Shown: positions 236 through 16,496 of the stretch, piece after piece | How positions within the stretch are numbered: position 1 is the first letter of the stretch | Layout of the letters: each line of letters opens with the position of its first letter | Assembly: GCA_963804165.1 (NCBI GenBank) | Contig: CAWDPO010000043.1 | Span: forward strand, 352,001-416,000 | DNA length: 64,000 bases | Origin: an uncultured delta proteobacterium | GTDB taxonomy: Bacteria > Desulfobacterota > Binatia > UBA9968 | Direction: 5' to 3' | Notes under the pieces: generated by a model | What the model saw: only the letters and a program-made list of their open reading frames with translations | What the model was told of the DNA's origin: nothing | Database searches by the model: none | Position numbers and translations under genes: made by a program

Positions 236-2182
236 TTAAACTTTGGAATTTTTCTGCTGTTCCTCCAGAAGCCGCTGCGCCTCTTCCTCGGACAGTGATT
301 CCAATTCCTTCAATAGTGTCGTCAAGTCTTGGGCGTCCAAAGTCTTTCCCTGATGTGCCGTGATCATTGATGCCATTTCCGCAACGGTCGGAGATTCAAA
401 TAGTGATCGCAGTGGTATCTCTAACTGAAACTGATTGACGACTCGCGACACAACCCGGGTCGCTGTCAGAGAGTGACCTCCAAGGTCCAAGAAATCGTCG
501 TAGATACCAATGGGACGAACATCAAGCAGATCCTCCCAGATCTGGACCAAACTCTTTTCTATCTCATTTCGCGGCGCAGTATATAACGCGTCAAGTTTCG
601 GTCGCGCACGATCCGGTTTTGGTAAGGCGCGACGATCCAACTTTCCGTTCGTTAGCGGCAGCGATTCCAAAAACACAAAAGTCGACGGGACCATGTAATC
701 TGGCAGTTTATTCCTGATAAATTTTTTGAGATCGCTCACATTGAGAACGGAGTTTTGACGCGGGATGACATAACCGACCAGATACTCTTCTCCGAGCTCA
801 CGGTCCCATGCAGCGACTCCGGCGTCTTTGACCTGAGGATGCGCCAACAATGCTCTCTCAATCTCGCCCAGCTCCACACGGTAGCCACGAATCTTCACCA
901 TGAGATCTTTTCGTCCCAGGTGGATCACAAATCCGTTGGGCAACATCCGGCCGAGATCGCCGGTCGGATAAATTGAATCGGCTGCGCCCTGTGAGTTCCA
1001 GGTTGTCGAGGATGGACGGTGGAACGGCAGATTAAGGTATCGACTGCGGACGGTGATTTCTCCCGTTTGCCCGGGTTGCGCTATATTTCCATCCTCGTCA
1101 ACTATAAGGACTTCTCTTCCAGGCCGGGGATATCCGACGGGAACGCCCTGTTCCGGGAGCTTGAAGTCTTGATCGATCAGAAACGAAGCGAATGTATGGG
1201 TTTCCGTCGCGCCAATAGAAATTTCGAAGGTCGTCGTGGCTGGGAAATGCATCCTATAGAGTGCGATTTCCACTTTGGATACTGGCGCTCCCGACAAATT
1301 AATCAAACGTAATGCGGGAAATTCTATCCTATGCGAGAGCGATTCCACGAACTGGCGAAAGACTACCGGAGTTGAATGAAAGCAAGTGATTTGCTCGTCA
1401 CGCAACCATGACGGGATCCGATTGATTCCTTCCAAGCTAATGTCGAACGGATGAATCGATGCTCCGTTCAGCAAGGACTGATAAAGGTTTATGTGAGACG
1501 AACCAAAAGCAATAGAATGAAATAGGGTGAGCTTGTCGTCTACGCCAATATTATTTATCTGGCCGTGAACAACGCCGTTAAACACGATATTCTTATGAGG
1601 ACAAACGATACCCTTGGGTTTTCCTGTCGATCCCGAAGTGTATAAAAGGCATGCGGGCTCCTCCGCTCCGACCGAAAGTTCGGGGTTCTCAGAGGCGGTT
1701 GAGTGATCGAGTTGGTCGACATTCAGCAATAGCTTCGAATTTCGAATGTGCGGATTGATAAGCCCCTCACCGCGACTATTCGACAGAAGTAAGCTAGCGC
1801 CAGAGTCCTCCAACATTCGAACTTGTCTTTCCTCGGGAAACGATGGGTCTAAACCCAGGTAGAATTTACCTGCCTTCAATACTCCCAAAATTGCTGGAAG
1901 CATGTCGATTCCATGCTCGAATAACAGGGGTATGGGCTCGCTTGAGGCCCCTCGCTTCGCCAAAACGGCGTGAGCGATCCGATTAGCCGCGCGGTTGAGT
2001 TGATCGTAGGTCAGCGCTCGGTCCCTGTCCTTGACTGCCAATCGCTCCGGATACATGTGCACGATCTTCTCAAACCGCGCCGGGATCGATGTCTCAACGT
2101 CCTCCATGGGTCACTCAACGAACATTCCCCATGGAAGAAAGCACTTGGCCCGTATTGATTGTTGGTCATGCGGCAACTTCAT
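236..2182 (-). CDS. Stand-alone NRPS-like adenylation + carrier (A-PCP) protein; in-frame TGA at 2111-2113 near the N-terminus
   Basis: ORF 236..2107 has YTSGSTGKPKG, TGDLG, KIRGYRVELGEIE, NGKLDR and PCP motif LGGHSL. An in-frame ATG at 2182 with GGGGAG RBS encodes MKLPHDQQSIRAKCF... before the TGA. Confidence 0.85.
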
Positions 2183-2483
2183 AGCACTCCCCTACCTTTC
2201 CCCGATTTGCTCTTCCGCGCATCTTTCTCCTGGTCCTGGGAAGGATTGTAGACGAGTGCATTGCTATACGACAAGACTAGAGGTTAGAGGAAGTCTTATG
2301 GTCTTAACAGAGGGGAACTTAATGGCACATGCGGTAAAGAATAGTCCCATAAACATCGGCGCAGTTGGCAGCGAGAACTCGGTTTACATTAAAAAATACA
2401 ATCGCGCACAGAGTGAGCAAGAACTCTAGATTGAAAATTTCGCTCACAACTTTTCGAAGGCAGTTTACCCAGTTTCGACGCAG

Positions 2484-2549
2484 GATTGAACTAAACGACG
2501 CTTCTGACGAATCTCGTGAGATTCGTTTGAAGGAGAATTCAGTTCAATT
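2484..2549 (+). repeat. Double 12-6-12 site (A: CGACGC spacer; B: GGAGAA spacer), copy 1
   Basis: GATTGAACTAAA-CGACGC-TTCTGACGAATC, 6 bp gap, GATTCGTTTGAA-GGAGAA-TTCAGTTCAATT. Confidence 0.85.
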
Positions 2550-2554
2550 CCATG

Positions 2555-2650
2555 GTTAAACGTTCGCGTTGAGCGGCACGCCCGCACGGGAGCCCATTGG
2601 CGAGCCACCGCCGCTTCCGGCGCGTCCGCTCCAACGCGGGGTTAGCTGGC
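2555..2650 (-). mobile_element. Integron attC site
   Basis: Minus strand: GCCAGCTAAC-cccgc-GTTGGAGC...GCTCAAC-gcgaac-GTTTAAC, i.e. R'', 5-bp spacer, 8-bp L'' with one extra base, 7-bp L', R'. It lies just after the lipocalin gene stop. Confidence 0.8.
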
Positions 2651-2666
2651 ACCAGAGCGCCATCGC

Positions 2667-3182
2667 CTATTTTGCGCGTCGAAGGACCAAGTGGACGATT
2701 CCTCCGCCGACAGCCGAAACAGGGCTTATGATCTTTAACTTATCACCCGAGATTTCGATGAGCCGAGACTGATCCTCGCCGTTCCAGTTTGGGTAGGTAC
2801 TCCCATCGTAGTGCAGATTTATCTTCCGTTCTTTCTCGTCGATAGAATACCTGCCGAAATAGGCGATGCTTCCTTGTACGATTGCTTTGTTCTCCTCTGC
2901 AGTCCCCGCCATGCGATTGTTTGAAGCAAACTTCGGCAACGTCCCACGTTGAAGCACCAGGATAAAGCGTCCGTTTGCATCGTATACGACCATGCCTTTT
3001 GGATTAGAGCCGAATGGTTCCAATTTCTTTCCGTCTTGGTCTACGTATTGCGCTACTGCCATCCAAGTACCTACGATTTGCTTGCCTAGCGATTGGGCAG
3101 TCGCCGACACACACAAAAATGTGCTTAGCATAGCCAGTGCAACTGACAAGGTTCCGCGCAAACGGCATTGATACGCCTTCAT
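2667..3182 (-). CDS. Secreted lipocalin-like domain protein (gene-cassette cargo)
   Basis: Signal peptide, IVGTW, G...YDANGRF, IAYFGRYSIDE, STYPNW: Lipocalin_5-type pattern. GGGAGG RBS. Confidence 0.8.
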   Translation of the reverse strand: MKAYQCRLRGTLSVALAMLSTFLCVSATAQSLGKQIVGTWMAVAQYVDQDGKKLEPFGSNPKGMVVYDANGRFILVLQRGTLPKFASNNRMAGTAEENKAIVQGSIAYFGRYSIDEKERKINLHYDGSTYPNWNGEDQSRLIEISGDKLKIISPVSAVGGGIVHLVLRRAK

Positions 3183-3225
3183 AGTGCCTCCCTGTTGTTA
3201 AGTAACGACCGTATGACGCCTCCGA

Positions 3226-3290
3226 GCCAGCTAACTATTAAGTGAACTGCCGGCTCTTGCGGCGGGTTATCCGGGAACCCGAAATCTGAG
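3226..3290 (-). mobile_element. Cassette core site GTTAGCTGGC preceded by an attI-like sequence
   Basis: Minus-strand GTTAGCTGGC (3235-3226) is the exact complement of the attC R'' GCCAGCTAAC. It is preceded by CGGATAA...CACTTAATA rather than by another attC. Confidence 0.55.
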
Positions 3291-3427
3291 AAGAGCAAAA
3301 TGAACTGAATATCCGTCAACAAGCCGTGCTTTGTCAATGGTTTCACCCGACAAACGCTGCCCGCGGAGCGGTATATCCAGATATCAGCCCGCGGTGTATC
3401 TTGGCGGATCAACCGAAATCGCCGTAG

Positions 3428-3457
3428 GATTGAACTGAACGACGCTTCAATTCGATC
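3428..3457 (+). repeat. Single 12-6-12 site (A type)
   Basis: GATTGAACTGAA-CGACGC-TTCAATTCGATC. Confidence 0.85.
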
Positions 3458-3503
3458 TCCATTATCCGTCTTAATCAAAGATGAAAAAGTGAAACCAGCG
3501 ACA

Positions 3504-3553
3504 CGCCTGGAGTCCATCCAGGAGAGGGCCGGGCAGCACGGACCGTGGCGCTC
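3504..3553 (+). repeat. 50-bp direct repeat, copy 1 (copy 2 at 4461-4510)
   Basis: CGCCTGGAGTCCATCCAGGAGAGGGC...GACCGTGGCGCTC. Confidence 0.75.
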
Positions 3554-3700
3554 TAAGTGACACGGAATTGAGTTGCTAGAGAAGCGGCACAAAGACACTT
3601 TGGCTCAATTAGCGCCGTCCACCACGATTGTTTGGACGGTGCAGGGATCTCGTGAGCAAGTCCGTCCGAGATGGTCTGTCGGTAAAGATTCATCCAGACG

Positions 3701-3886
3701 CTATCGCGATGGATCACTCGGACCGCGCGGATTCCCCGCCGATCCTCTGTCAGCAGGAGAGCTTTTCGAAATCTTCTGCAATTCATCAGCCTTCCTTGTT
3801 GGATCAGCATCATTGCCTCGACAGCTCCCAAGAACAACCGTGGCGCATAGTAGGATGGCGACCGCGAGAAGCGTCTGTTTATGCAT
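3701..3886 (-). CDS. Putative small lipoprotein
   Basis: Basic N-terminus, hydrophobic stretch and lipobox LGSC; GGGGAGG RBS upstream. Confidence 0.45.
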   Translation of the reverse strand: MHKQTLLAVAILLCATVVLGSCRGNDADPTRKADELQKISKSSPADRGSAGNPRGPSDPSR

Positions 3887-4138
3887 AATCTGCCTCCCCT
3901 GTCGAATGATCGATATCGTCCAATTCCGAAACTGAGTTGCCGTTGAGAGAGCTGAGGATAAAACGAGCCTCGCAAATTCAGGAGCTCATCTCATGATGCA
4001 GACCTACGCATGAGAAAGCTTGGGACAACTGCGGCAAGCACTAGTTAACGTGACGAGAATTGTCAAGATGCTGAAAAGACATTTTGTCTTGGACGCGCGG
4101 CCTCTGACGGACAACATCCTCACTGAGATGCTGAGAGG

Positions 4139-4168
4139 GATTGAACTTTAACGAATCTAATTTCAATC
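4139..4168 (+). repeat. Degenerate 30-bp palindromic site related to the 12-6-12 family
   Basis: GATTGAACTTTAACGAATCTAATTTCAATC: same outer arms and length, different centre. Confidence 0.45.
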
Positions 4169-4460
4169 GTTCACAAACGGCGCGTTTACGCCGTAGGGTC
4201 CTGGCCATGAAAAAAGGATATCAAGGCGACGAACTCTGGAGCGCTGTAAATCCGGCGAGCGGTAAACAAGAATTGGTTGACCCCGAGGGCGAATTCATCC
4301 CGGTGAAACAATCATCAAGCTGTACTATTGGAAACGGCTTGACGGCTATGTGACCGTCCCTGGGGATTCGATGTTCAAAGTCGCGGCCGATGGCTACACG
4401 CTCGAAGCTGTTAGATGAGACTTAGCACCAGCAGCCAAACCATCAACAAAGACATCGTTG

Positions 4461-4510
4461 CGCCTGAAGTCCATTCAGGAGAGGGCGGTGTGAATCCGAC
4501 CGTGGCGCTC
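4461..4510 (+). repeat. 50-bp direct repeat, copy 2
   Basis: CGCCTGAAGTCCATTCAGGAGAGGGC...GACCGTGGCGCTC, about 30 bp past the MBL stop. Confidence 0.75.
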
Positions 4511-4539
4511 CAAAGTTGATTCAGCGCTAGATACCGAAG

Positions 4540-5520
4540 CTACTGGAACCGTAAGAGACCAGCCTTTGCGCATTCGTCTGCAACGGTCAAATACCGCTTT
4601 ATGCTGTCAGTTCCAACAACATACGGATGCCGATCCTCGGCTTTTCGTTTTGATAACGCTGGCAGCTTCACCTTGCTCCCGTCGTAGATGGTATGGTTGG
4701 AAAGAAGAACATCGGCACCCGCTTTTTCCACAATCTCCCCTAAGCGGCGGGCGGAGTTGCTGTAGGTTTCAAACCAAAAACTATTCGGCTTGCCTCGATA
4801 TTCCGCTCCGCCTCTTAGCCAATTGAACGCAGTACCTCCAACCTCAACAGCGAGGTGACGCTTTCCTCCGTCCTTTACCGGGATAAGAGTTGAGATCGTG
4901 CCTAGCGTATGTCCAGGGGTCTTGTACATCGTCAGTGTCGTGTCGCCAAGCGTGAGCTTCTGTCCGTCAACAGCGACCATATCGCGCTTGGGCTTTGGCC
5001 ATGGCTGCGTATTGCGGCTCATTGCGTCCCAGTCTTCTTCGGCAAGAATGACCCGCGCACCGAAACGATCCTGGAGATACTTTGCTCCACCCGCGTGATC
5101 GATGTGACCATGACTGACAATCACATACTTGATCGAAACCAGATCAAAGCCGAGCTTTTTCAATCCGGCGACGATCTCATCCTCCACTGAGTAGTCAAAT
5201 AAGGCATCCACGATGATGATGCCTTCTGAGGTAGTCACGGCCCAGGCCGAGTGCTCCGCCTGTCCGACAAAGTAAAGATTATCGAAAACTTTTACCGGTT
5301 CGGCGTACCAACTCGAACGATTTGGAGGCCCGGATGGCGGGCGAGCCGTCGTAGCCGGCGTGCACACCGTCTTGAATAAAGCGAGATACTCCTGACCAGC
5401 AGCCTCTCGCGCTTTAGCTACATGAGCATCAGCTGTATCGGAAAACTGAGCAGCAGAGTTGACTGAGACACAATACACCGTAAGACCCAGAGCCAGAACG
5501 ACTATAATCCAAAATCGCAT
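4540..5520 (-). CDS. Secreted metallo-beta-lactamase-fold hydrolase, subclass B3-like
   Basis: Signal peptide; PVKVFDNLYFVG, SHGHIDHAGG (HxHxDH), TPGHTLG, LSNH. Confidence 0.88.
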   Translation of the reverse strand: MRFWIIVVLALGLTVYCVSVNSAAQFSDTADAHVAKAREAAGQEYLALFKTVCTPATTARPPSGPPNRSSWYAEPVKVFDNLYFVGQAEHSAWAVTTSEGIIIVDALFDYSVEDEIVAGLKKLGFDLVSIKYVIVSHGHIDHAGGAKYLQDRFGARVILAEEDWDAMSRNTQPWPKPKRDMVAVDGQKLTLGDTTLTMYKTPGHTLGTISTLIPVKDGGKRHLAVEVGGTAFNWLRGGAEYRGKPNSFWFETYSNSARRLGEIVEKAGADVLLSNHTIYDGSKVKLPALSKRKAEDRHPYVVGTDSIKRYLTVADECAKAGLLRFQ

Positions 5521-5651
5521 CGGCGTTCTCCTTTTGCTCTCAGACGTGTGAAGAAATCAAATCCTAATGGTTGGGTGTCTGACCAACGAACTCGCGGCTC
5601 CGGACGGTTTACCTTCGTGATGAATGGCTTGTCAATATGTCCACGCCCTCA

Positions 5652-5719
5652 GATTGAACTTAACGACGCCTCGGTTCGATGAGTTCCAAGATTGGCTCGT
5701 AGGAGAATTCAGTTCAATC
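5652..5719 (+). repeat. Double 12-6-12 site, copy 2
   Basis: GATTGAACTTAA-CGACGC-CTCGGTTCGATG, 8 bp gap, GATTGGCTCGTA-GGAGAA-TTCAGTTCAATC. Confidence 0.85.
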
Positions 5720-5774
5720 CTGGTTGTTTTCACGTCTGAAACCGATCTGAAAAATCGCCTCGATAAGAACGAAT

Positions 5775-6761
5775 CTACTTGATCACCCTATCCGCCCGCG
5801 CGAGCACGTTCGGTGGAATCGTCACGCCGATCTGCTTGGCAGTCTTCAGATTAATTATCAGCTCAAACTTCGTCGGTTGTTCGACCGGCAAGTCGGCTGG
5901 CTTCGTTCCCTTGAGAATCTTGTCGACGTACGTGGCAGCGCGACGGAGCAGGTCGGCAAAGTTCGGTCCATAGGCCATGAGTCCCCCAGCCTTCTCCGCA
6001 TGCTCTCTTGTGTCATAAACCAGCGGCAGCCGGTTTTTTGCCGCGAAGTCTGCGATTTGTCTTCCGTAGGTAAGGACCGTTGGGTTTGGCACCATAAGAG
6101 CGCCCGGCCGTTCCCGAATCGCGGCCTCGAAAGCACTCGCTAGCTCTGTGGGATTTCGGACCTCCAGGGATTGAAGGGTAATCGCCAATGCCTGGGCCGC
6201 ACTCTGCACCTCTTTGAATCTGATTCTGTTGGCCGAATTAGCCGGATCCCAGATGAAGGCTACTCGTGTGACGTTCGGCAATATTTCTTTGAGCAGTTCC
6301 AATCGTTTTCCATCTAAGTCAGGGGACAGAGTGGTCAACCCCGTAATATTCCCACCTGGCCGTGCGAAGCTAGCGACGAGTCCGACGGCAACCGGATCTG
6401 CTACCTCTGCCATGACAATGGGGATAGTGCTGGTCGTGTTCTTAACGGCCTGGATCGCTGGTGTAGTTCCCGTAACGATCACGTCAACTTTAAGCTGGAG
6501 CAGCTCGGACGCGAGCACGGGCAACCGATCGCTTTTTCCCTCAGTGTAGCGATACTCAATGATGATGTTCTGTCCCTCAACATAGCCAAGTTCCCGCAGA
6601 CCTTGCCGGAATGCCTCGATACGGGCTGAGTAAGAGGAAGGGGAGCCGGGAACTAGAAAACCTACGAGCGGGACTTTCTTCGGCTGCTGCGCCTCGGCTA
6701 TGACCGCAACAGCAAGCAGCACCACTACAAACAGGATTGATAAGATCCAAGCTTTCCTCAT
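5775..6761 (-). CDS. ABC transporter substrate-binding protein (ABC_sub_bind family), orphan
   Basis: AEAQQPKKVP.VGFL, LRELGYVEGQN, GGNITG, KPADLPVEQPTKFEL, ARADRVIK; likely start MRKAWIL. Confidence 0.9.
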   Translation of the reverse strand: MRKAWILSILFVVVLLAVAVIAEAQQPKKVPLVGFLVPGSPSSYSARIEAFRQGLRELGYVEGQNIIIEYRYTEGKSDRLPVLASELLQLKVDVIVTGTTPAIQAVKNTTSTIPIVMAEVADPVAVGLVASFARPGGNITGLTTLSPDLDGKRLELLKEILPNVTRVAFIWDPANSANRIRFKEVQSAAQALAITLQSLEVRNPTELASAFEAAIRERPGALMVPNPTVLTYGRQIADFAAKNRLPLVYDTREHAEKAGGLMAYGPNFADLLRRAATYVDKILKGTKPADLPVEQPTKFELIINLKTAKQIGVTIPPNVLARADRVIK

Positions 6762-6873
6762 TGCACACATCATTTGTTATGTATCACGCGGGCGGTAGTA
6801 GAAAAAGGTAAGATTTACGACGGAAGACGACAGGTATTCGTCGAGCGGAAACACAAATTTTTAGCGTAAGTAA

Positions 6874-6939
6874 GATTGAACTGAACGACGCGTCAGACAA
6901 ACCTTGCGAGATTGAGTCGTAGGAGAATTCAGTTCAATC
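6874..6939 (+). repeat. Double 12-6-12 site, copy 3
   Basis: GATTGAACTGAA-CGACGC-GTCAGACAAACC, 6 bp gap, GATTGAGTCGTA-GGAGAA-TTCAGTTCAATC. Confidence 0.85.
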
Positions 6940-6966
6940 CTAGCATCGCCGCTTCTCTTTCTTTGC

Positions 6967-7947
6967 TCACTTGATCACTTTGTCCGCTCTCGCCAGCACA
7001 TTCGGCGGAATCGTCAGGCCGATTTGCTTAGCGGTTTTCAGGTTGACGATGAACTCAAATTTCTTTGGCTGCTCGACGGGAAGATCGGAGGGTTTGGCGC
7101 CCTTAAGGATCTTGTCCACAAGAACGGCGGCGCGTCTGTAGGGTTCGATCCGGTCTGTTCCGTAGGACATGAAGCCGCCGAGCTCCACAAAATCTGCCAG
7201 ACCGGCTATTGCCGGTAGGCGATTTTTTATCGCCAGGCTTATGATTTGGTTTTGATTATTAGCGATCAACCCGCCTCCCGTCACGAAGAGAGCGCCGCTC
7301 CGTGCCTTCACTGCATCTCTGAACCCGCTCTCGATATCGTTGGCGCTGCTTACCGCCATGGAATGAAGTTGTAGACTGAGTTCCTTTGCTGGCGGTTGGC
7401 TTTCTTTCCATACTTGCGTCGAGCCCGGATTCTGCGAATGCCACAGCACTGCAACGCGGGAGAGCTTGGGAATAGTCTCCTTGAGTAACTCCAGCAGTTT
7501 GCCCGCTAACACCCCGCCAATCGAAGTGAAGCCTGTGATATTGCCCCCAGGCGACGCCAAGCTGTCAACCAACCCAAGCGAAACGGGATCGGATACCGTT
7601 CCCAGAAAGACGATGGGAATCGTCCTAGTAGCGTTTTTCGCGGCTCGGGTGTCATTTGCCCCCGGCGTGACGATCACGTCAACCTTGAGCCGAACCAACT
7701 CAGCAGCAAGGGACCGAAGACGGTCGAGATTGTGCTCTGCGTATCGGAACTCGAAAGCTATATTCTTGCCTTCGACATAGCCGAGTTTGAGAAACTCTCG
7801 CCGAAATGATTCGAGCCTAGCCGAAGGGGAACTGGCTCCTCCGAGAATTCCAATTATCGGTATTTTCGCCGGCTGCTGCGCCTCGGCGACGACTGCAGCG
7901 GCGAGCAGGAACACTACAAGCAGGATTGAAAAGACCGGTTTCCTCAT
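6967..7947 (-). CDS. ABC transporter substrate-binding protein (ABC_sub_bind family), paralog
   Basis: Same family motifs as 5775..6761; upstream region also similar. Confidence 0.9.
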   Translation of the reverse strand: MRKPVFSILLVVFLLAAAVVAEAQQPAKIPIIGILGGASSPSARLESFRREFLKLGYVEGKNIAFEFRYAEHNLDRLRSLAAELVRLKVDVIVTPGANDTRAAKNATRTIPIVFLGTVSDPVSLGLVDSLASPGGNITGFTSIGGVLAGKLLELLKETIPKLSRVAVLWHSQNPGSTQVWKESQPPAKELSLQLHSMAVSSANDIESGFRDAVKARSGALFVTGGGLIANNQNQIISLAIKNRLPAIAGLADFVELGGFMSYGTDRIEPYRRAAVLVDKILKGAKPSDLPVEQPKKFEFIVNLKTAKQIGLTIPPNVLARADKVIK

Positions 7948-8054
7948 TGCACACATGCATTCGCTATGTATCACGGGGGCGGTAGAAGAGAAAAGTGAGA
8001 TTTACGTAGAAAGGCGGCAAGGATTCGTTGAATAGGAAACCCGAATCAGCCTGA

Positions 8055-8084
8055 GATTGAACTGAACGACGCTTCAGTTCGATC
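8055..8084 (+). repeat. Single 12-6-12 site (A type), nearly perfect palindromic arms
   Basis: GATTGAACTGAA-CGACGC-TTCAGTTCGATC (11/12 arm symmetry). Confidence 0.9.
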
Positions 8085-8264
8085 AATCTGCTAGGGCTTG
8101 AGTATTTATTAGTAATTGGAGTCAGATGGGCCACCGTAATATAGAAAATCTATATCTTCAGTTTTTGCACGAACCAAACAGCCCCAAGGGTGAGGACCAA
8201 CACGTTTCCGTTTCGGACAGATGAAGGCGGATAGTTCTGGCAAAGTTGTGACAAAGTAAGTCGA

Positions 8265-8645
8265 TTACCCATCAACTTTAGCGATTAATCGTTCTACTTC
8301 CCCGAGAAATTCTTTCAGGTTGAGCGGCTTGGTCTGATAACCGTCGAATCCTTCCGCCAACATCGTTTGTCTGTTGTGTGTCATCGCCGATGCCGTGATG
8401 GCGACAATCGGTATGCGGTTAGTTTTCGGCGCAGCCTTGAGCTGCTTCATCGCCGTGATGCCGTCCATACCAAGGAGCTGGATGTCCATCAGGATCAGAG
8501 CGGGAGTTTTTTCCTCTGCGAGCTTTAGGCCGTCCTCGGCGGTCTCGGTGTCGATAGTTTGATAGCCCTTGACCTGAAGTAAGTCACGAATGAGCTTACG
8601 ATTTTTCTCATTGTCCTCAATGATCAGTATTAGTTCGTTGGCCAT
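8265..8645 (-). CDS. Single-domain response regulator (DivK/CheY-like)
   Basis: [38 protein letters not shown]; start MANELI. Confidence 0.9.
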   Translation of the reverse strand: MANELILIIEDNEKNRKLIRDLLQVKGYQTIDTETAEDGLKLAEEKTPALILMDIQLLGMDGITAMKQLKAAPKTNRIPIVAITASAMTHNRQTMLAEGFDGYQTKPLNLKEFLGEVERLIAKVDG

Positions 8646-11600
8646 CAAATTTCTCTTGGTTGAGCGGCAGAGTAAAAGTGAATGTACTGCCCTTGCCGAC
8701 TGCGCTTTCCACCCAAATCTTCCCGCCATGCAGTTCGACAAACTTCCGAGTGAGGGTTAATCCGAGTCCCGTCCCTTCGCGTTTTTTGGAATAATCGGTG
8801 CCCACCTGACGAAACTCTTCAAAGATCGTCTCTTGGTTTTCCGGGGCGATGCCGCTCCCCGTGTCGCTCACGGAGATCTCTACCGCTCCGTTGGTGAGCG
8901 CGGCATCGACGTCGATACGTCCACCTTCCTCAGTAAACTTGACTGCATTCGATAAGAGATTCAAAAGAATTTGCTTGAACTTTCTCTCGTCACCGATGAC
9001 CTCGCCCAACCGCTCGTCTACGGTATGCCGTAGCATGACACCGTGCCGTGTCGCCCGTTCTCGTATGAGAATCAGCGCGTTGTCGATCGCAGTTGGTATG
9101 TCAAACTTCGTCAGATCCAATTCCATCCGCCCCGCCTCGACTTTGGACAGATCCAGAATATCGTTGATCAGCGAAAGAAGATGGCGCCCTGAGGAGACGA
9201 TATCGTCCATATACTCGTTCTGCTTGTCGTTCAGTTCGCCGAACAGCTTCTCCGAGAGCACTTCCGAGAATCCGATGATAGCGGTCAATGGCGTGCGCAG
9301 CTCGTGGGACATGTTGGCAAGAAATTCTGATTTATGCCGGTTAGCCGTCTCAATCTCACGGCTTTTGTCCTCGATCTCACGAAACAACCGGGCATTTTGG
9401 ATCGCGAGGGCGGACTGAGTCGCAAACGTCTGAAGCAGATTCACAATTTCCGGTTCGAAGTTTCCAGCCTGCTTCCGCCAAACGGTTAGACCTCCCATGA
9501 TTTGCTGTTCGCGGAAAAGCGGGATCGACAGAAGAGATCGATATCCCAGCCGCGTAAGCATCGGCCGCACTCTCGTCCCGGTGTATTCACGCTGATCTAA
9601 GATATCCGGGACCTGGACTGGCGCGCGTGTCGTTACCGCTTGTCCTGTAACACCTTCACCCAAGCGTATCGGCGCTGCCCGAAGCGCATCGACCACTTCT
9701 TCTTCCATCCGGTGGCTCGCTCTCAGATGAAACTCTTGAGTTGATTCATCGTATTCGTAAATGACGCCGCAATCGGTTCCGGAAAGTTGGACGGCGTGAG
9801 CAACAATAGTGGCGAGAACCGTTTCGAGATCCAGAGTGGAGCTGACCGCTTGACCGACTTCGCCTAAGGCTTTGAATTCCCCAACGGATCGAGCCAACTC
9901 GCTTGTCCGCTCTTCGAGTTCTTGAAACAGCCGACGTTCTCGATGGCGATCACCGCTTGGTCGGCGAAGGTTTCGAGCAGCTTGATCTGCGCCGCGGTGA
10001 AGGGGCGTACCTCGGTGCGACGTGCGATCAGTAGCCCCAATGAGTTCCCCTTGCTGGCGAAGGGGAACGCCTAAAAGGTGCGCCAGTTCGCTGACGGAAC
10101 CCAACTATTGGGATAATCGTTCTGCTGCGCGGCAGGTCGGGAATGTGCAGCGTCCCATGCTCGCGCATCCAGCGGATGACTGTCGGCTCATCGATACTGA
10201 TCTCGACCCGCCCAGCTGGGTATGGATATCGGACCAAAATGAGCCCGCGAAACCAGTAGCGTTTCCCTCGCGGAGCCGCAGTCACCACGTCATCAATCCC
10301 ACAAACCCGGGCGGCGCTCTCGACGATGGCGTCGAGCACCGGCTGCACGTCCGTGGGCGAGCGGCTGATGATGCCGAGCACCTCGGCTGGTTGCGGTCTG
10401 ATGCTCCAGCGCTTCGCGCAACTCGCGTTGCGCTCTTGCAGTTCCTTGAAACAGCCGCACGTTCTCGATGGCGATCACGGCTTGAGTCGGCAAAGGTTTC
10501 AAGAAGCTTGATCTGCTCGTCTGTGAAAGGACGAACTTCCAGCCGGCGGATCGTTGATCACTCCGATAGGCACTCCCTCGCGCAAGAGCGGTGCGGCCAA
10601 TATCGTTCGAATGCCTGGCGCTCCGTGAAGCTCACACGCTCAGGAAAATCTTTTGCGACCACTGCGGCTAGATCCTCAATGTGAATCATCCGTCGCTCGA
10701 GCAACCGCAGCGACCAATGACTGACTGCCATCGATGCTGAAATCAACGCAGCTTCCACGGCTGATGGCAGCCGTAATGCGCCGCGTGTCTGAAAGCATCA
10801 TCTCCTTCGACGTAGTCGAATCGTTGCGTCCTCCGCGTCACACACCCGCGCGGCGTTTTCCGCGACCACATCCAGCACCGGATGGATATCCGTCGGCGAG
10901 CTGGCGATGACACCCAGGATCTCAGCTCGTCGCCGTCTTGCTGCTCCAACGATTCCTTGAGTTCTTTGAACAGACCGCACGTTCTCGATGGCGATCACCG
11001 CCTGGTCGGCGAAGGTTTCGAGAAGTTTGATCTGCGCCGGAGTGAAGGGGCGCACCTCGATGCGTCGCGCTTCCAGATTCGTCCAATGAATTCCTCTTGC
11101 TGAACGAAGCGGAGTGGACAAGTAACGTGCGAAACCCGCTGACCAGCACCCAATCTCGGGAAATCGTTCTGCGCAGCACGGACATCGGTGAACGTGGAGC
11201 GTGCCATGCTCGCGTATCCAGCGAAACCATGGCCCATCAATACTGATCGTCGACCCGCCCAGCAGGTATGGATATCGGACCAAAATGAGCCCGGGCGACC
11301 ATACTTTCTCCCTCCCGGAGTCGCAGCATTACATCATCAATTCCGCAAACCCGTGCTGCACTCTCGACGATGGCGTCGAGGACCGGCTGCACGTCGGTCG
11401 GCGAGCGGCTGATGATCCCGAGCACCTCGGACGTCGCGGTCTGATGCTCCAGGGCTTCGCGCAATTCCGCATTGCGCTCGCCGAGCTCTTTGAACAACCG
11501 CACGTTCTCGATGGCGATCACGGCTTGATCCGCGAAGGTCTTCGAGCAGGGCGACCTGCTTGTCGTGCAAACGGTCGTACCTCTGTCCGGCGGATCATGA

Positions 11601-13686
11601 TGGCGCCGACGGGGAATCCCTCTCGCAATAGCGGAACCGCCAGCAACGTCCGAATACGCCAGCCGCTCGTCGGTGCGCCTGACCTCGGCGTAGTCCTCGT
11701 CTAGCACGGCCAGGCTGTCGTGGATGTGGACGGGCTCGCGCTGGAGAATGGCTCGGCCAATCAGCCAGCTGCGATCGATCGGGCGAGTCTCGCCGACCGC
11801 AAGTATTGGGGAGACCACCCCATAGCTTGCTACCTTCCGCAGGTTGTCGCCCTCAACCCGATAAATCTGCGCGTCACTCGAATCACATAATCGGGCCGCA
11901 TTTTCGGCCACAGTGTCGAGTACCGGCTGGATATCGGTCGGCGAGCTAGCGATGACGCCCAGGATCTCACTGGTCGCAGTCTGTTGCTCCAACGCCTCCT
12001 GTGGAGTTCTTGGAACAACCGCACGTTCTCGATGGCGATCACGGATTGGGAAGCGAACGTTTCGAGAAGCTTGATCTGCTTCTCTGTGAACGGGCGAACC
12101 TCTTTACGGCGGATATGAATCGTCCCGATAGGAATTCCCTCGCGCATCAACGGCGTGGAAAGCATTGTCCTGACACCGAGACTTCTAGCGTACGTTGCTG
12201 GAAAGTCATTCTCTGCCAATGCTGCCAAGTCATGAATATGAAGAGTTCGCAGATCTATCACGGTTCGGCCGGGTACGGAGTCGCGATCCATTGGCACGAG
12301 CCGACCCTCACCCCGCCGTGTCGGCAGCGACCCGTAGTTGGCCACCGATAGAAGCTTGTCGCCATCAATGCGATGAATCACGGCGTCGGTTGCGTCGCAC
12401 AGTCGCGCTGCATTCTCCGCCACTATATCCAGCACTGGCTGTACGTCGGTCGGTGAGCTGGCGATCACGCCCAAGATTTCACTGGTAGCCGTCTGCTGTT
12501 CCAACGCCTCTTTAAGTTCTTGGAACAGCCGAACGTTTTCGATAGCAATCACCGCCTGATCAGCGAAAGTCTCCAGCAACTTGATCTGCACGGGGGTGAA
12601 GGGGCGCACCTCAATGCGACGCGCGTTCATCGTTCCAATGAGTTCTCCATGTTGGCGAAGTGGGACGATCAGGAAAGTACGTGACCGAGCGCCGGCTGAG
12701 GAACCCAGTGTGGGAAAGTCGGTTTGCTGCGCGCGGATATCGGGTATATGGAGCGTGCCATGCTCGCGAATCCAGCCAAAATGCACCTCATCAAGACTGA
12801 TTTTCAGCCGGCCAGGGGCTATTGCCACAGGACCAAAATGAGCCCGTGCAACCATCGCGTTCATTTCAATCAGTCGGAGGACCACGTCATCAACCCCACA
12901 AACCCGCGCAGCACTCTCGACGATTGCGTTCAGCACCGGTTGCACATCCGTCGGCGAGCGGCTGATGATACGGAGCACCTCGGACGTCGCAGTCTGATGC
13001 TCCAGAGCCTCGCGAAGTTCCGAATTAGATGATTCCAGCTCAGTGGTCTTTTGTGTGAGTTCTTGAAATAGCCGAGAATTCTCGATCGCGATCACCGCCT
13101 GGTCAGCAAAGATTTCCAATAGTTTGATTTGTCGTTCTGAGAAAGGACGAACTTCCGGACGGCGGATGAGGATCGCTCCGATGGGAACACCCTGTCTAAG
13201 CAACGGTGTTGCGAGTGCAGTCCTATTGCCGTGGCGCTGAGCAAGTTCCCGTGCCCGTGGATACTCTGATACTGGGGTATTGAAGATGTCATGAATATGG
13301 ATCGTTTGTCTGTCCAGCATCGATCGTCCCGCGAGTGTGCCCCGGTCAAGCGGGACATGCTCCTGGCGGGGATTGACAGAAACGGGACCGTAGGATGCGA
13401 TAACCCCCTGCCCGTCGTCATGAAGACGGAGTATTTGCGCGTCGATAGAATCGCACAACCGCGCTGCACGCTCGGCAATCGCGTCGAGTAAAGACTGAAG
13501 ATCCGCTGGTGCCTTGGCAATCATCCGCAGGATGTCGCTGGTGGCTGTCTCCCGTTCGAGTAACTCGTCGCGCTCGCGCCGCAATGACTGAATATTTTCC
13601 GCTTGTTTCGGCTGAGACTTTTTCACCACAGACCGGCGCGGTTTTGCCTTTTTACTTTTAGAGCCCTTTTGGGTCGTGGTTGCCAT
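8617..13686 (-). CDS. Poly-GAF (8 GAF domains) sensor histidine kinase, broken by many frameshifts
   Basis: Eight GAF-ending motifs ([12 protein letters not shown]-like) about 520-550 bp apart, then [35 protein letters not shown]. Split over ORFs 11830..13758, 11237..11992, 10798..11283, 10028..10381 and 8617..10104. Confidence 0.85.
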
Positions 13687-13892
13687 AAACGAAGACCGAA
13701 ACGGAGATGCTGGTCGGGGAGAATCTGGAAAAATGTCAGGATTACGCTGCAGCAACACGCTCCCCCAGCGCCTGAAGCTGACTTTTACTTCAGGTGGCTG
13801 GTGGCGTCAACGAAGAAGGTCAAGTTTGCGGCTTGGTAGGAGAAGATTCAATCCGAAATCCGTCGCTGACGCAAAGACACAAAAATCGCCAG

Positions 13893-13922
13893 GATTGAAC
13901 TGAACGACGCCTCTGGGCAACG
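13893..13922 (+). repeat. 12-6-12 site (A type) at the right end of the array
   Basis: GATTGAACTGAA-CGACGC-CTCTGGGCAACG; left arm and spacer exact. Confidence 0.8.
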
Positions 13923-14094
13923 CCACTGAGCTCGATTAAATGCAAGCGCGACTGTCAGCGCGCATCTAGGAAGCGTTGCTGACGTAACCGAAAACATCTC
14001 GAACCTAGAAAACGCCCGGCTCTGCTATCAAGTTGACATCATTGACACCGTCAGATAGTCAACGATGGCAAAGCTGAAGGAGCCGGTCGTAACG

Positions 14095-15468
14095 ATGCCC
14101 AAAGACCTCCGCAGTTTCATCGCCCAACTCGAATCCAAATATCCCGAAGAAGTCGCCCGGGTGAGGAAACCGATCTCGCCCCGTTACGAGATCACGGCTT
14201 TGCTAACTCAGTTGGAAAAAGCAAGCGTTTTCCGCTGCTGTTCTGTGAGAACGTCGAAGGCAGCGATGCGCCGGTCGTCATCAATGTGCAAGCGAGCCGA
14301 AAGCTCATGGCGTTGGCACTGGAGTGTAAGCCTGAAGAATTCGCCGCCAAGTTCGCCGAACGCCAGAGTAAACCGATCGCGCCGGTGGAAGTGACCGATG
14401 GGCCGGTCCAGGAAATCGTCAATCTCGGCGATGATGTGGATCTGACAAAAGTGCCGCTGCTCACGCACTACGACGTCAACGCCGCGCCCTTATATCACGG
14501 CGGGCATCGTCGTCGCTGCCGATCCCGACAGCGGCGTCAGAAACACCAGCTATAACCGACTGATGATGGCGCGCAAACGCGAGCTGCGCATTTTCATGGC
14601 CATCGGCCGCCATCTCTGGACGCTGCACAACAAAATGGAGCGGCGCAGCGAGCCGCTCCCCATCGCTATCGTCGTCGGCGTGCATCCATTGTTCTCACTC
14701 GGCGCCCAAGCGTTTACGCCGTCGACGGACGACGAGTACGCCGTCATCGGCGGCATGATGGGCGAAGCCTTGCGCGTGGTGCAAGCGAAGACAGTACCGA
14801 TTTTGGTTCCTGCCGACGCGGAGATGATGATCGAAGGCAAGATCCTGCCCAACGTCCGGCGCGAGGAGGGACCGTTCGGCGAATTCACCGGCCACGCGGT
14901 AGCCAAAGACGATCGCCAGGTCATCGAAGTCACCGCGATCACGCACCGGAAAAACTATATTTTCCAAGACGTCCACGCGGGCTACACCGAGCATAAGCTG
15001 ATGGGCGCAGTGCCGCGCGAAGCCGCGCTGATCAAAGCCGTGCGCCAAACCGTGCCGACGGTGAAAAATGTCTGCATGCCGGTGTCGGGCAACTGCCGCT
15101 TTCATGCCTATATTTCGATTGCCAAGCGCACGCCGGGTCAGGCCAAGAACGCCATCTGCGCCGCCTTCGCCTCCGACATGCTGCTGAAGCACGTGATCAT
15201 CGTCGACGACGACATCGACGTCTTCGATGAAGAACAGGTGCTCTGGGCGGTATCGAACCGCTTTCAAGCCGATCAAGGCTTGGTCGTAATTGCCAATGCG
15301 CAAGGAAGCGAGCTGGATCCCTCCGCCGGCCCCGGCGGCGTCAACGCCAAGATGGGCCTGGATGCGACCAAACCGCTCACAGGTTTTGCTCCTGAGCTGA
15401 GAGTGCCCGAAGAAGTAATGAGGAAGATTCGACTCGAAGATTTCTTACCGAAATTCGCTAAAAAGTAG
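14095..15468 (+). CDS. UbiD family prFMN-dependent decarboxylase (frameshifted)
   Basis: MPKDLRSFI..., EEGPFGEFTG, VDDDIDVFD, ELDPS, KMGLDATKP; split over three frames. Confidence 0.88.
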
Positions 15469-15520
15469 GGGCGACCGGCGGTCGCCCGCAAGTTCAACTG
15501 CCGCGACAGAGCGCAGCAAA

Positions 15521-16496
15521 TTATTCCAACGAAAAGTTTGTGCCGACTTTTCGCTCCAACGCCCAGCGATAAGCCCAAGCGGTTGCTGTCGTGTCCCAGA
15601 TCGACATACCGACGGACTCGAAGACGATCGTCTGGTCAGCTTCGTTCGCGCGGGAATTTTCCCCAGACATCACGTCGCCCAGTTCGCCCGCGATTTGCGC
15701 GGCCGACCAAGTGCCATCAGCGATCATCGCCACGTAGGGCTGGCGCGGCGCTTCGCCGCCGAGCACTTCTTCTTTCCAAGACACAATCACGCGCGAGTTC
15801 GCGACCGTCTCGCGCGGCAGCTGCCCACTGGTGATCGAAACGACCAGCGCGCCCGGCGCGATCCATGCCGGCTCGATCACTGTCGAACGCGAACTGGTCG
15901 CCAGGCTGACGATCGGAGCGTTTTCCACGGCCGCCGTGGATCCGTCGACGGCTTCGACATCGATGCTCGAGCCAATCGCTCATCTCCTTGGCGAAACACT
16001 CGCGATGTTCTTCCGTCGGGCTGAAAACTTTTACCTTCTTCAACGAACTGGCAGCGCCCGGCGGATGGCGAGAATCTGGCCGCGCGCTTGGCGGCCGCTG
16101 CCGATCAGTCCGAGCGTATCCGCTCCTTTAGGCGCGAGGTATTTGCTCGCCACGCCGGCCGGCGCGCCGGTGCGCCAGACATTCAGCGCAGCGCCGGCGA
16201 CCAGCGCCAGCAAATCGCCGCGCTCGCCGTCGAAAGAGAAGATAAAATAGGCGTCCTTGGCGCCGCGAAACAGCGCGCTGATGCGCATGCCCTGCCCTGC
16301 CCGCGGCACGGCGGAAGTCGTGATGCGATATTTTTTCTGACGATCGATCAGACTGGTTTCCAGGCGCACCTGGCCGGCGACCGCGTCGCTGTTAAACGCG
16401 CGCATCGAGTCTTCGATGCGGTCGAGTAGACCGTCCATTGCCACCGGGTCGCTGTACAGCGGCGCTAGGTCTTTTTCGCTGAGCAATGAGCGGCAT
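15521..16496 (-). CDS. Ornithine cyclodeaminase/mu-crystallin family protein (frameshifted)
   Basis: RTGAPAGVA, LGLIGSGRQA, IVSLATSS, GELGDV, FESVGMSIWD. Confidence 0.85.

Follow-up and report, generated by a model that had tools for sequence, protein, structure and literature searches.

How do unrelated accessory genes come to stand side by side, separated by the same short repeat, in the chromosome of an uncultured soil bacterium? The question is raised by a 64-kb stretch of contig CAWDPO010000043.1 (positions 352,001 to 416,000; hereafter the window, to which coordinates without a contig name refer) from an uncultured delta proteobacterium of the class Binatia, in which six co-oriented copies of a short recombination-like site lie between genes of diverse function. 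Its source genome, G000 (assembly GCA_963804165.1), comprises 7.5 Mb in 46 contigs and is 81% complete. Our reading, offered tentatively and at slightly worse than an even chance of being right, is that the window holds an integron-type cassette array without an integrase, similar to the attC-site clusters that have no integron integrase (CALIN) and built on an undescribed family of attC-like sites.

The 18-mer GATTGAACTNAACGACGC has six exact plus-strand matches in the window, at 2484, 3428, 5652, 6874, 8055 and 13893. Shuffled versions of the window contained 0.23 matches on average and none of 100 contained six or more, so that the six co-oriented copies described in an earlier note on this DNA are borne out; elsewhere in the window no further copy was found with up to three mismatches. 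Alignment of the sites with their flanks likewise upheld the invariant spacer CGACGC, the variable arm that follows it and, at 8055, arms symmetric at 11 of 12 positions. The degenerate copy placed at 4139 does carry the GATTGAAC...TTTCAATC arms, but its spacer differs and it lies more than three mismatches from the 18-mer. All sites had been called intergenic, which holds for five of the six, whereas 3428 overlaps a listed open reading frame (ORF; 3179–3598) without Pfam match. The window sites lie 24–180 nt past the stop of one minus-strand ORF and 80–377 nt ahead of the start of the next.

A single motif of two 12-nt arms around a 6-nt spacer (12-6-12) had been taken as the unit. In about half of the copies it proved to be part of a palindrome of ~66 nt with four arms and two different spacers. 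Within the window, sites 2484, 5652 and 6874 form the left half of such a palindrome, 66–68 nt long and ending in GGAGAA-TTCAGTTCAAT(C/T). Read along the motif strand, the full element consists of an arm GATTGAACTGAA, the spacer CGACGC, an inner arm, a loop of ~6 bases, a second inner arm, the spacer GGAGAA and an arm TTCAGTTCAATC. The whole genome has 62 copies of the 18-mer; for 32 a right half follows within 80 nt, yielding full elements of 64–69 nt, and right halves without a left half were also found.

When folded as single-stranded DNA, 28 distinct full elements (for example C20:6957, C43:354484 and C12:71830) are predicted to form an outer stem of 11–12 bp, a bubble in which CGACGC and GGAGAA are unpaired, and an inner stem with a small loop; element 2484 adopted this stem-bubble-stem fold at −13.9 kcal/mol. 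The strand opposite the genes folded better in 22 of the 28 whole elements and in 45 of 59 inner hairpins, the sole asymmetry being G.T pairs that favour the non-coding strand. Because the better fold lies opposite the genes, a structure acting in the mRNA is disfavoured, and the bias fits the use of a folded bottom strand. That integron integrases work on the bottom strand in its folded form is described by Ghaly et al. (2021, PMC8618304).

The sites are not specific to this locus. The 62 copies of the 18-mer in G000 were counted at up to two mismatches, a control pattern giving 0. Merging of half sites gave 87 sites, comprising 29 full elements, 33 with the CGACGC half only (C-type) and 25 with the GGAGAA half only (G-type); the full-element counts of 29 and 32 come from two scripts with different right-half patterns. 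Sixty-four of the 87 sites fall into 11 clusters (at least three sites, no gap exceeding 10 kb) that together take up 1.58% of the genome. Within every cluster the sites share one orientation (9/9, 4/4, 3/3, 3/3, 10/10, 3/3, 4/4, 8/8, 3/3, 11/11 and 6/6), and the spacing between sites has a median of 1319 nt (range 488–8293). The earlier note had named many copies scattered over the genome in random orientation as a finding that would count against its inference: numerous genome-wide they are, but clustered and strictly co-oriented.

ORFs adjoining the sites average 178 and 146 aa when they run opposite the motif strand versus 74 and 105 aa on it, and many genes end 6–30 nt ahead of an element. 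Clustering of the 104 distinct products of neighbouring ORFs (raw ORF calls) gave 68 groups, of which 60 are singletons. The 28 members of one family show a relationship to the ABC_sub_bind solute-binding proteins of the window, Pfam having been run on the two window members; several members of the family end in ...VIK, with the stop 6–30 nt before an element.

Comparison of repeated blocks supported the claim that the sites delimit mobile gene blocks, since near-identical blocks start or stop at sites in other contexts or orders. At C21:9965 and C23:256818 a stretch of 562 nt, which runs to the final base of the left arm and includes a GACC arm variant, is 100% identical before the sequences diverge, while those at C21:11469 and C23:255309 share 98.8% identity from the first base of the element onwards and have unlike left flanks. 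The block from C12:71830 to 70850 recurs at C20:6957 to 5981, where its neighbours differ on either side, and a unit of ~1.1 kb at C5:21534 recurs at C8:29431, again with unlike left flanks. In another genome, locus L030 carries a block that is 95% identical to one on G000 contig C12 and has the core as its exact starting point; the order of two blocks shared with G000 is reversed there. The boundaries of all these blocks are compatible with exchange at or within GAA|CGACGC. Within the window, the 213-nt block 3233–3445 is near-identical to C23:259328–259546. One end of this homology is the element core, and the other falls exactly after ...AATAGTT, a bare GTT core beyond which the copies differ. 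As expected of attC sites, boundaries coincide with sites and cassettes recur in other contexts.

Sequencing-run data for the window consisted of short soil-metagenome contigs, none of the runs listed being of RNA and no run exceeding 0.27 of the sampled words. One such contig of 213 nt covers exactly block 3233–3445, which is a weak hint. Joints between site cores were rejected as evidence: their short sides measure 21–26 nt and may simply consist of the repeat.

Relatives show that the entire locus varies. In the relative G014, orthologues of the adenylation-carrier (window 270–2126) and UbiD-family (from 14095) genes that flank the sites lie 1.4 kb apart with no sites between them, window positions 2126–14095 being replaced, and in G015 homology resumes ~20 nt to the right of the last window site (13893). 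Gene order is not conserved, and the second finding that the earlier note held would count against it, a conserved order in relatives with breakpoints unrelated to the sites, was not seen. The proposed stacking of accessory genes stands in so far as the blocks are bounded by sites and the locus varies; that site-specific integration brought it about is what these sequence comparisons suggest. The window itself contains no recombinase gene, in agreement with an enzyme encoded elsewhere. The earlier inference of site-bounded accessory genes stacked by a recombinase from another locus was therefore largely correct. Its choice of dif and pdif sites as the nearest known system was not, integron attC sites and CALIN arrays being closer.

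attC sites have core consensus sequences RYYYAAC and GTTRRRY in their R boxes and are about 57–141 nt long. The 64–69 nt of the 32 full copies fall inside this range, and the arm strings ATTGAAC/GTTCAAT or ACTGAAC/GTTCAGT each agree with the cores at six of seven positions, with AAC and GTT present. Alignment and folds also reveal the attC architecture R''-L''...L'-R', in which an unpaired spacer separates the R-box stem from the L-box stem. Both kinds of site are therefore imperfect palindromes with two outer and two inner arms around an unpaired centre. The resemblance extends to the arrays: each site stands just after a gene, one strand is used throughout, the cassettes are diverse, sites within one genome are homogeneous, and arrays lie away from an integrase. 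CALIN are defined by Cury et al. (2016, PMC4889954) as two or more attC sites that share a strand and lack a neighbouring intI. The clusters have this shape, and their membership hinges on whether the elements count as attC sites.

If they do, the 12-6-12 sites would be the best-conserved part of an attC-like recombination site of ~66 nt. On the gene strand each cassette would read gene, arm GATTGAACTGAA, TTCTCC, inner arm, loop, inner arm, GCGTCG and arm TTCAGTTCAATC. The bottom, non-gene strand is predicted to fold into a 12-bp outer stem, a 6 × 6 bubble (CGACGC versus GGAGAA) and an inner stem. A tyrosine recombinase supplied from elsewhere would catalyse strand exchange where arm and spacer meet, at GAA|CGACGC (G|TT when read along the genes), and cassettes would thereby be cut out, inserted and reordered. 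The recombinase would most likely be an integron integrase, as carried by many relatives.

Integrases are indeed frequent among related genomes. The integron integrase profile TIGR02249 was matched over its curated cut-off in 9 of 41 relatives, and an integrase match at E ≤ 1e-30 was found in 14 of 24 genomes of the genus (tallies that include the unpublished G005). Canonical sites of the form GCCTAAC...GTTAGGC adjoin these integrases. A covariance model that we built from 28 integrase-adjacent canonical sites found six sites in L128 on which it had not been trained. In the window it matched a minus-strand site, AGCTAAC...GTTTAAC, at 2554–2647 (23.6 bits, E 0.0054), which lies after the lipocalin gene and 4 bases from element 2484. 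Weaker matches were obtained on C5 and C23, three of them 4–6 nt from elements. In the canonical-like sites at this distance (window 2554–2647, C5:1186–1285, C5:8697–8788 and C23:256852–256932) the spacing from the G of the GTT core to the start of the element appears constant, at ~11 nt, as though the element had been set directly behind them as a cassette lacking a gene. A cruder hairpin finder for canonical attC sites was dropped because it did not discriminate between arrays and controls (6.1 versus 11.7 matches per 100 kb).

A number of results weigh against assigning the elements to an integron integrase. The best integrase match in G000, an 81%-complete assembly, scores 105 bits against a TIGR02249 cut-off of 265; neither the genome nor the window yields a match over that cut-off, and a complete integron, with an intI gene and attI adjoining the array, was accordingly not found there. 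The canonical covariance model does not hit the elements at E values up to 1. No family element, at up to three mismatches, occurs in 490,141 bases around 80 metagenome integrase homologues, and none stands beside an integrase in G018, G014, G015 or G006 or on the integrase contig of G042. An array adjoining an integrase was sought as well, in L020–L025, on the integrase contigs of G042 and G045 and in the 80 metagenome loci, and none was seen. The integrase-proximal array of G018, on contig C6, gives six model matches, all canonical and two of them from the training set, and the elements of that genome nearest to the integrase lie ~27 kb beyond this array. An integrase match is present in 4 of the 7 relatives with at least nine copies versus 10 of the 17 others.

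The anatomy of the element also departs from that of attC in several ways. Its outer stems measure 12 bp versus 7 bp in attC, many sites stand alone as halves, and minimum-energy folding of the 28 full elements gives no evident sign of the extrahelical L-box bases by which attC sites mark the strand. The inner arms covary little, the own partner beating a foreign one in 34 of 59 cases (−2.51 versus −1.96 kcal/mol), and drift instead toward the arm consensus. Stand-alone C-type and G-type sites tend to alternate (C, G, C, G) along the arrays, and genes lie in both C-to-G and G-to-C intervals, unlike the arrangement of textbook attC sites. Neither spacer varies to any extent worth noting, whereas those of attC sites show poor conservation according to Cury et al. 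(2016, PMC4889954).

An integrase-independent recombinase is the main rival, one that we regard as possible and, on balance, unlikely. Each 12-6-12 site would then be a duplex target for a host Xer-like or other tyrosine recombinase; the CGACGC and GGAGAA sites would form two orthogonal, alternating classes, and the 66-nt element would be one of each side by side. Such a system would account for the abundance and alternation of stand-alone sites with genes in both kinds of interval, for near-invariant spacers and inner arms that drift without covarying, for boundaries that all fit exchange within a constant 6-bp overlap, for the lack of elements beside an integron integrase in the loci examined, and for an element abundance unrelated to the integrase. 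The arm moreover resembles the XerD-side arm of dif at 8 of 11 positions. The hybrid arm|GGAGAA|arm sites at C23:256818, C5:22621 and C8:28341 are harder to obtain in this way, as they need exchange between unlike spacers. The unpaired bubble made by the two opposed spacers, together with the better fold of the non-coding strand, points to a folded single strand rather than a duplex, and canonical attC-like sites share the arrays. Nor was a recombinase found that co-occurs with the arrays. The array-side tyrosine recombinases of G000 are the first genes of IS91-like units and were rejected because they were not found, at E 1e-60, in G018, a genome that carries dozens of elements. A 198-aa tyrosine-recombinase catalytic fragment, cassette-like and within a G018 array (L025:2280–2876, G018:C11:130279–130875), ends just before a stand-alone C-type site; it was rejected as the enzyme of the arrays, its best G000 match being 40% identical and thus no close homologue. 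The host dif was not located, since a dif-like pattern proved no more frequent than its reversed control.

Repeats of the REP, BIME or MITE kind (repetitive extragenic palindromic sequences, bacterial interspersed mosaic elements and miniature inverted-repeat transposable elements) are likewise short, palindromic, intergenic and present in many copies, and blocks beside them could be shuffled by homologous recombination or slippage. The 12-nt terminal inverted repeats of the element are in line with this, as is the likeness of its ends to those of the IS91-like units that the genome also carries (TTGAACTAAAC). Where a boundary falls within an invariant 18-mer, homologous and site-specific exchange look the same, and loss of the DNA between the left arm and the similar inner arm could have produced the hybrid sites. 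This account is nevertheless improbable. Those repeats are scattered in mixed orientation, whereas here most sites are confined to 1.58% of the genome and every cluster is co-oriented; no direct target duplication is present, the flanks continue the inverted repeat for only 3–4 nt, and no empty site was found for comparison. The boundary of block 3233–3445 at a bare GTT core, moreover, shares no homology that could drive exchange. Less probable still is a regulatory element, either the operator of a dimeric regulator or an intercistronic RNA stem-loop, copied together with binding-protein genes. Palindromic arms and a position 80–130 nt upstream of many genes would suit it, and 28 of the 104 neighbouring products are binding-protein paralogues whose flanks are conserved too; yet the elements also flank the 60 unrelated singletons, it is the strand opposite the mRNA that folds better, and no Rfam family was matched at the sites, either at the gathering threshold or at E values up to 10. 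Block boundaries at sites and the lack of this stretch in G014 would be left unexplained. Both the repeat and the regulatory accounts thus fit the clustering, orientation and boundaries poorly.

Comparison with two further systems helps to place the CALIN-like reading. In the Vibrio cholerae superintegron, one uniform repeat family separates dozens of cassettes in a chromosome, and the array starts at an integrase and attI at one locus. The uniform site family is alike here, but it is spread over at least 11 separate arrays, with no integrase in the assembly. In pdif modules of Acinetobacter plasmids, sites made of an arm, a 6-bp spacer and an arm bound accessory modules, and the recombinase is encoded elsewhere; their two arms are unlike, with a XerC and a XerD side, and their orientation alternates around the modules. 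The sites studied here share the arm-6bp-arm plan, but their arms are alike, they are co-oriented, and they form chromosomal arrays.

The order of features in the window is as follows. The conserved left flank is a minus-strand gene for an adenylation and carrier protein (236–2107; Pfam, with an orthologue in G014). The full element GATTGAACTAAA-CGACGC-arm-loop-arm-GGAGAA-TTCAGTTCAATT, assigned by alignment and fold, occupies 2484–2549 on the plus strand, as do all the family sites that follow. Beyond the canonical-like site comes a minus-strand cassette gene for a lipocalin-like protein (2667–3182; PF13924, E 9e-23), then block 3233–3445, which is assigned to the minus strand and contains no ORF, and the stand-alone C-type site at 3428–3457, arm-CGACGC-arm TTCAATTCGATC. 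A minus-strand cassette ORF of 140 aa (3553–3975), taken from the ORF list, has no family in the Pfam scan; it is followed by the degenerate site (4139–4170, from alignment) and by a minus-strand cassette gene for a metallo-beta-lactamase-fold protein (4540–5520; PF00753, E 8e-19). The next two sites, at 5652–5719 and 6874–6939, are full elements by match, alignment and fold, the second lying 27 nt past the stop of a binding-protein gene. Each precedes, in coordinate order, a minus-strand cassette gene for an ABC_sub_bind substrate-binding protein (5775–6773, PF04392, E 3e-52; 6967–7974, PF04392, E 3e-49). Match and alignment place a stand-alone C-type site, that with the near-symmetric arms, at 8055–8084, and a terminal C-type site, whose right side is not an arm and which marks the edge of the variable region, at 13893–13922. 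Between these two, the minus strand encodes a response regulator, a GAF histidine kinase and GAF proteins (8265–13758; Pfam).

The right flank is a plus-strand UbiD-family gene (14095–16488; Pfam), with orthologues in at least 12 relatives. It appears as two ORFs (14065–14394 and 14563–15468), while the DNA of relatives aligns continuously over 14095–16488; the split may be a frameshift or an assembly error. The response regulator and GAF-kinase block (8231–13200) has many paralogues of 67–86% identity in G000 (C30, C11 and C3) and in relatives, and two of the C30 copies lie 0.5–2.5 kb from other family sites. A second motif of ~50 nt, CGCCTGGAGTCCATCCAGGAGAGGGCC...GCAGCACGGACCGTGGCGC, was noticed at ~3490–3553 and 4455–4520 and also in L028, L099 and L102. 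Two cassette ORFs are directly followed by it, and several stand-alone C-type sites have it on their right; it may represent a further family of sites.

Further observations concern elements outside the window. The IS91-like units, of ~2.4 kb, encode the tyrosine recombinase (PF00589) followed by Zn_Tnp_IS91 and Y2_Tnp proteins; copies lie at C23:251689–254133, C23:259580–262024, C10:35558–37994, C5:2655–5090 and C41:58569–61010 and on C18 from 37165. Their inverted ends read G(G/A)ACTAAACCGC, and in every case the junction with the flank follows TT. A cassette-element arm is cut two bases from the spacer by three of the copies, and those at C9:6484 and C41:61010 stand directly after ...CACTTAATAGTT, the GTT core that also ends block 3233–3445. 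The units seem to target cassette recombination sites. Near the integron integrase genes of G014 and G018, runs in which GTTCAA recurs every 9 bases were seen at L022:1433–1487 and 2246–2300 and at L021:3012–3056, 3810–3845 and 10154–10180. They may be integrase-binding repeats of the attI region; the same hexamer forms the centre of the arms of the cassette element.

In a species-level genome collection the exact 18-mer was found at least 91 times in 80 stretches, where by our own arithmetic ~17 matches are expected by chance. Among the matches listed were at least 24 full elements in 19 stretches; most of the matching records carry the label Candidatus Binatia or 'uncultured delta proteobacterium', and some full elements lie in metagenome-assembled genomes (MAGs) labelled Pyrinomonadaceae or Verrucomicrobiia. 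Short contigs bearing repeats are easily mis-binned and, given this and the chance matches, we do not treat a spread across phyla as established. In the library that was searched, no paper combined integrons with Binatia or Binatota, and the sequences of arm and core led to nothing beyond a primer paper of no relevance here.

Under either enzyme, the invariant 18-mer is a simple handle for recovering cassettes from soil metagenomes. Were the elements integrase substrates, they would constitute an undescribed and very uniform attC family that organizes dozens of cassettes, many of them encoding solute-binding proteins, in an uncultured soil lineage, with attC-like sites able to stand as halves. 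Were they instead the alternating CGACGC and GGAGAA sites of a host Xer-like or other tyrosine recombinase, which we consider possible but unlikely, the arrays would represent a second, independent way of stacking and shuffling chromosomal genes, common in Binatia-like soil bacteria and perhaps shared by MAGs labelled Acidobacteriota or Verrucomicrobiota. A second kind of chromosomal cassette system of this sort would bear on how accessory genes are exchanged in soil.

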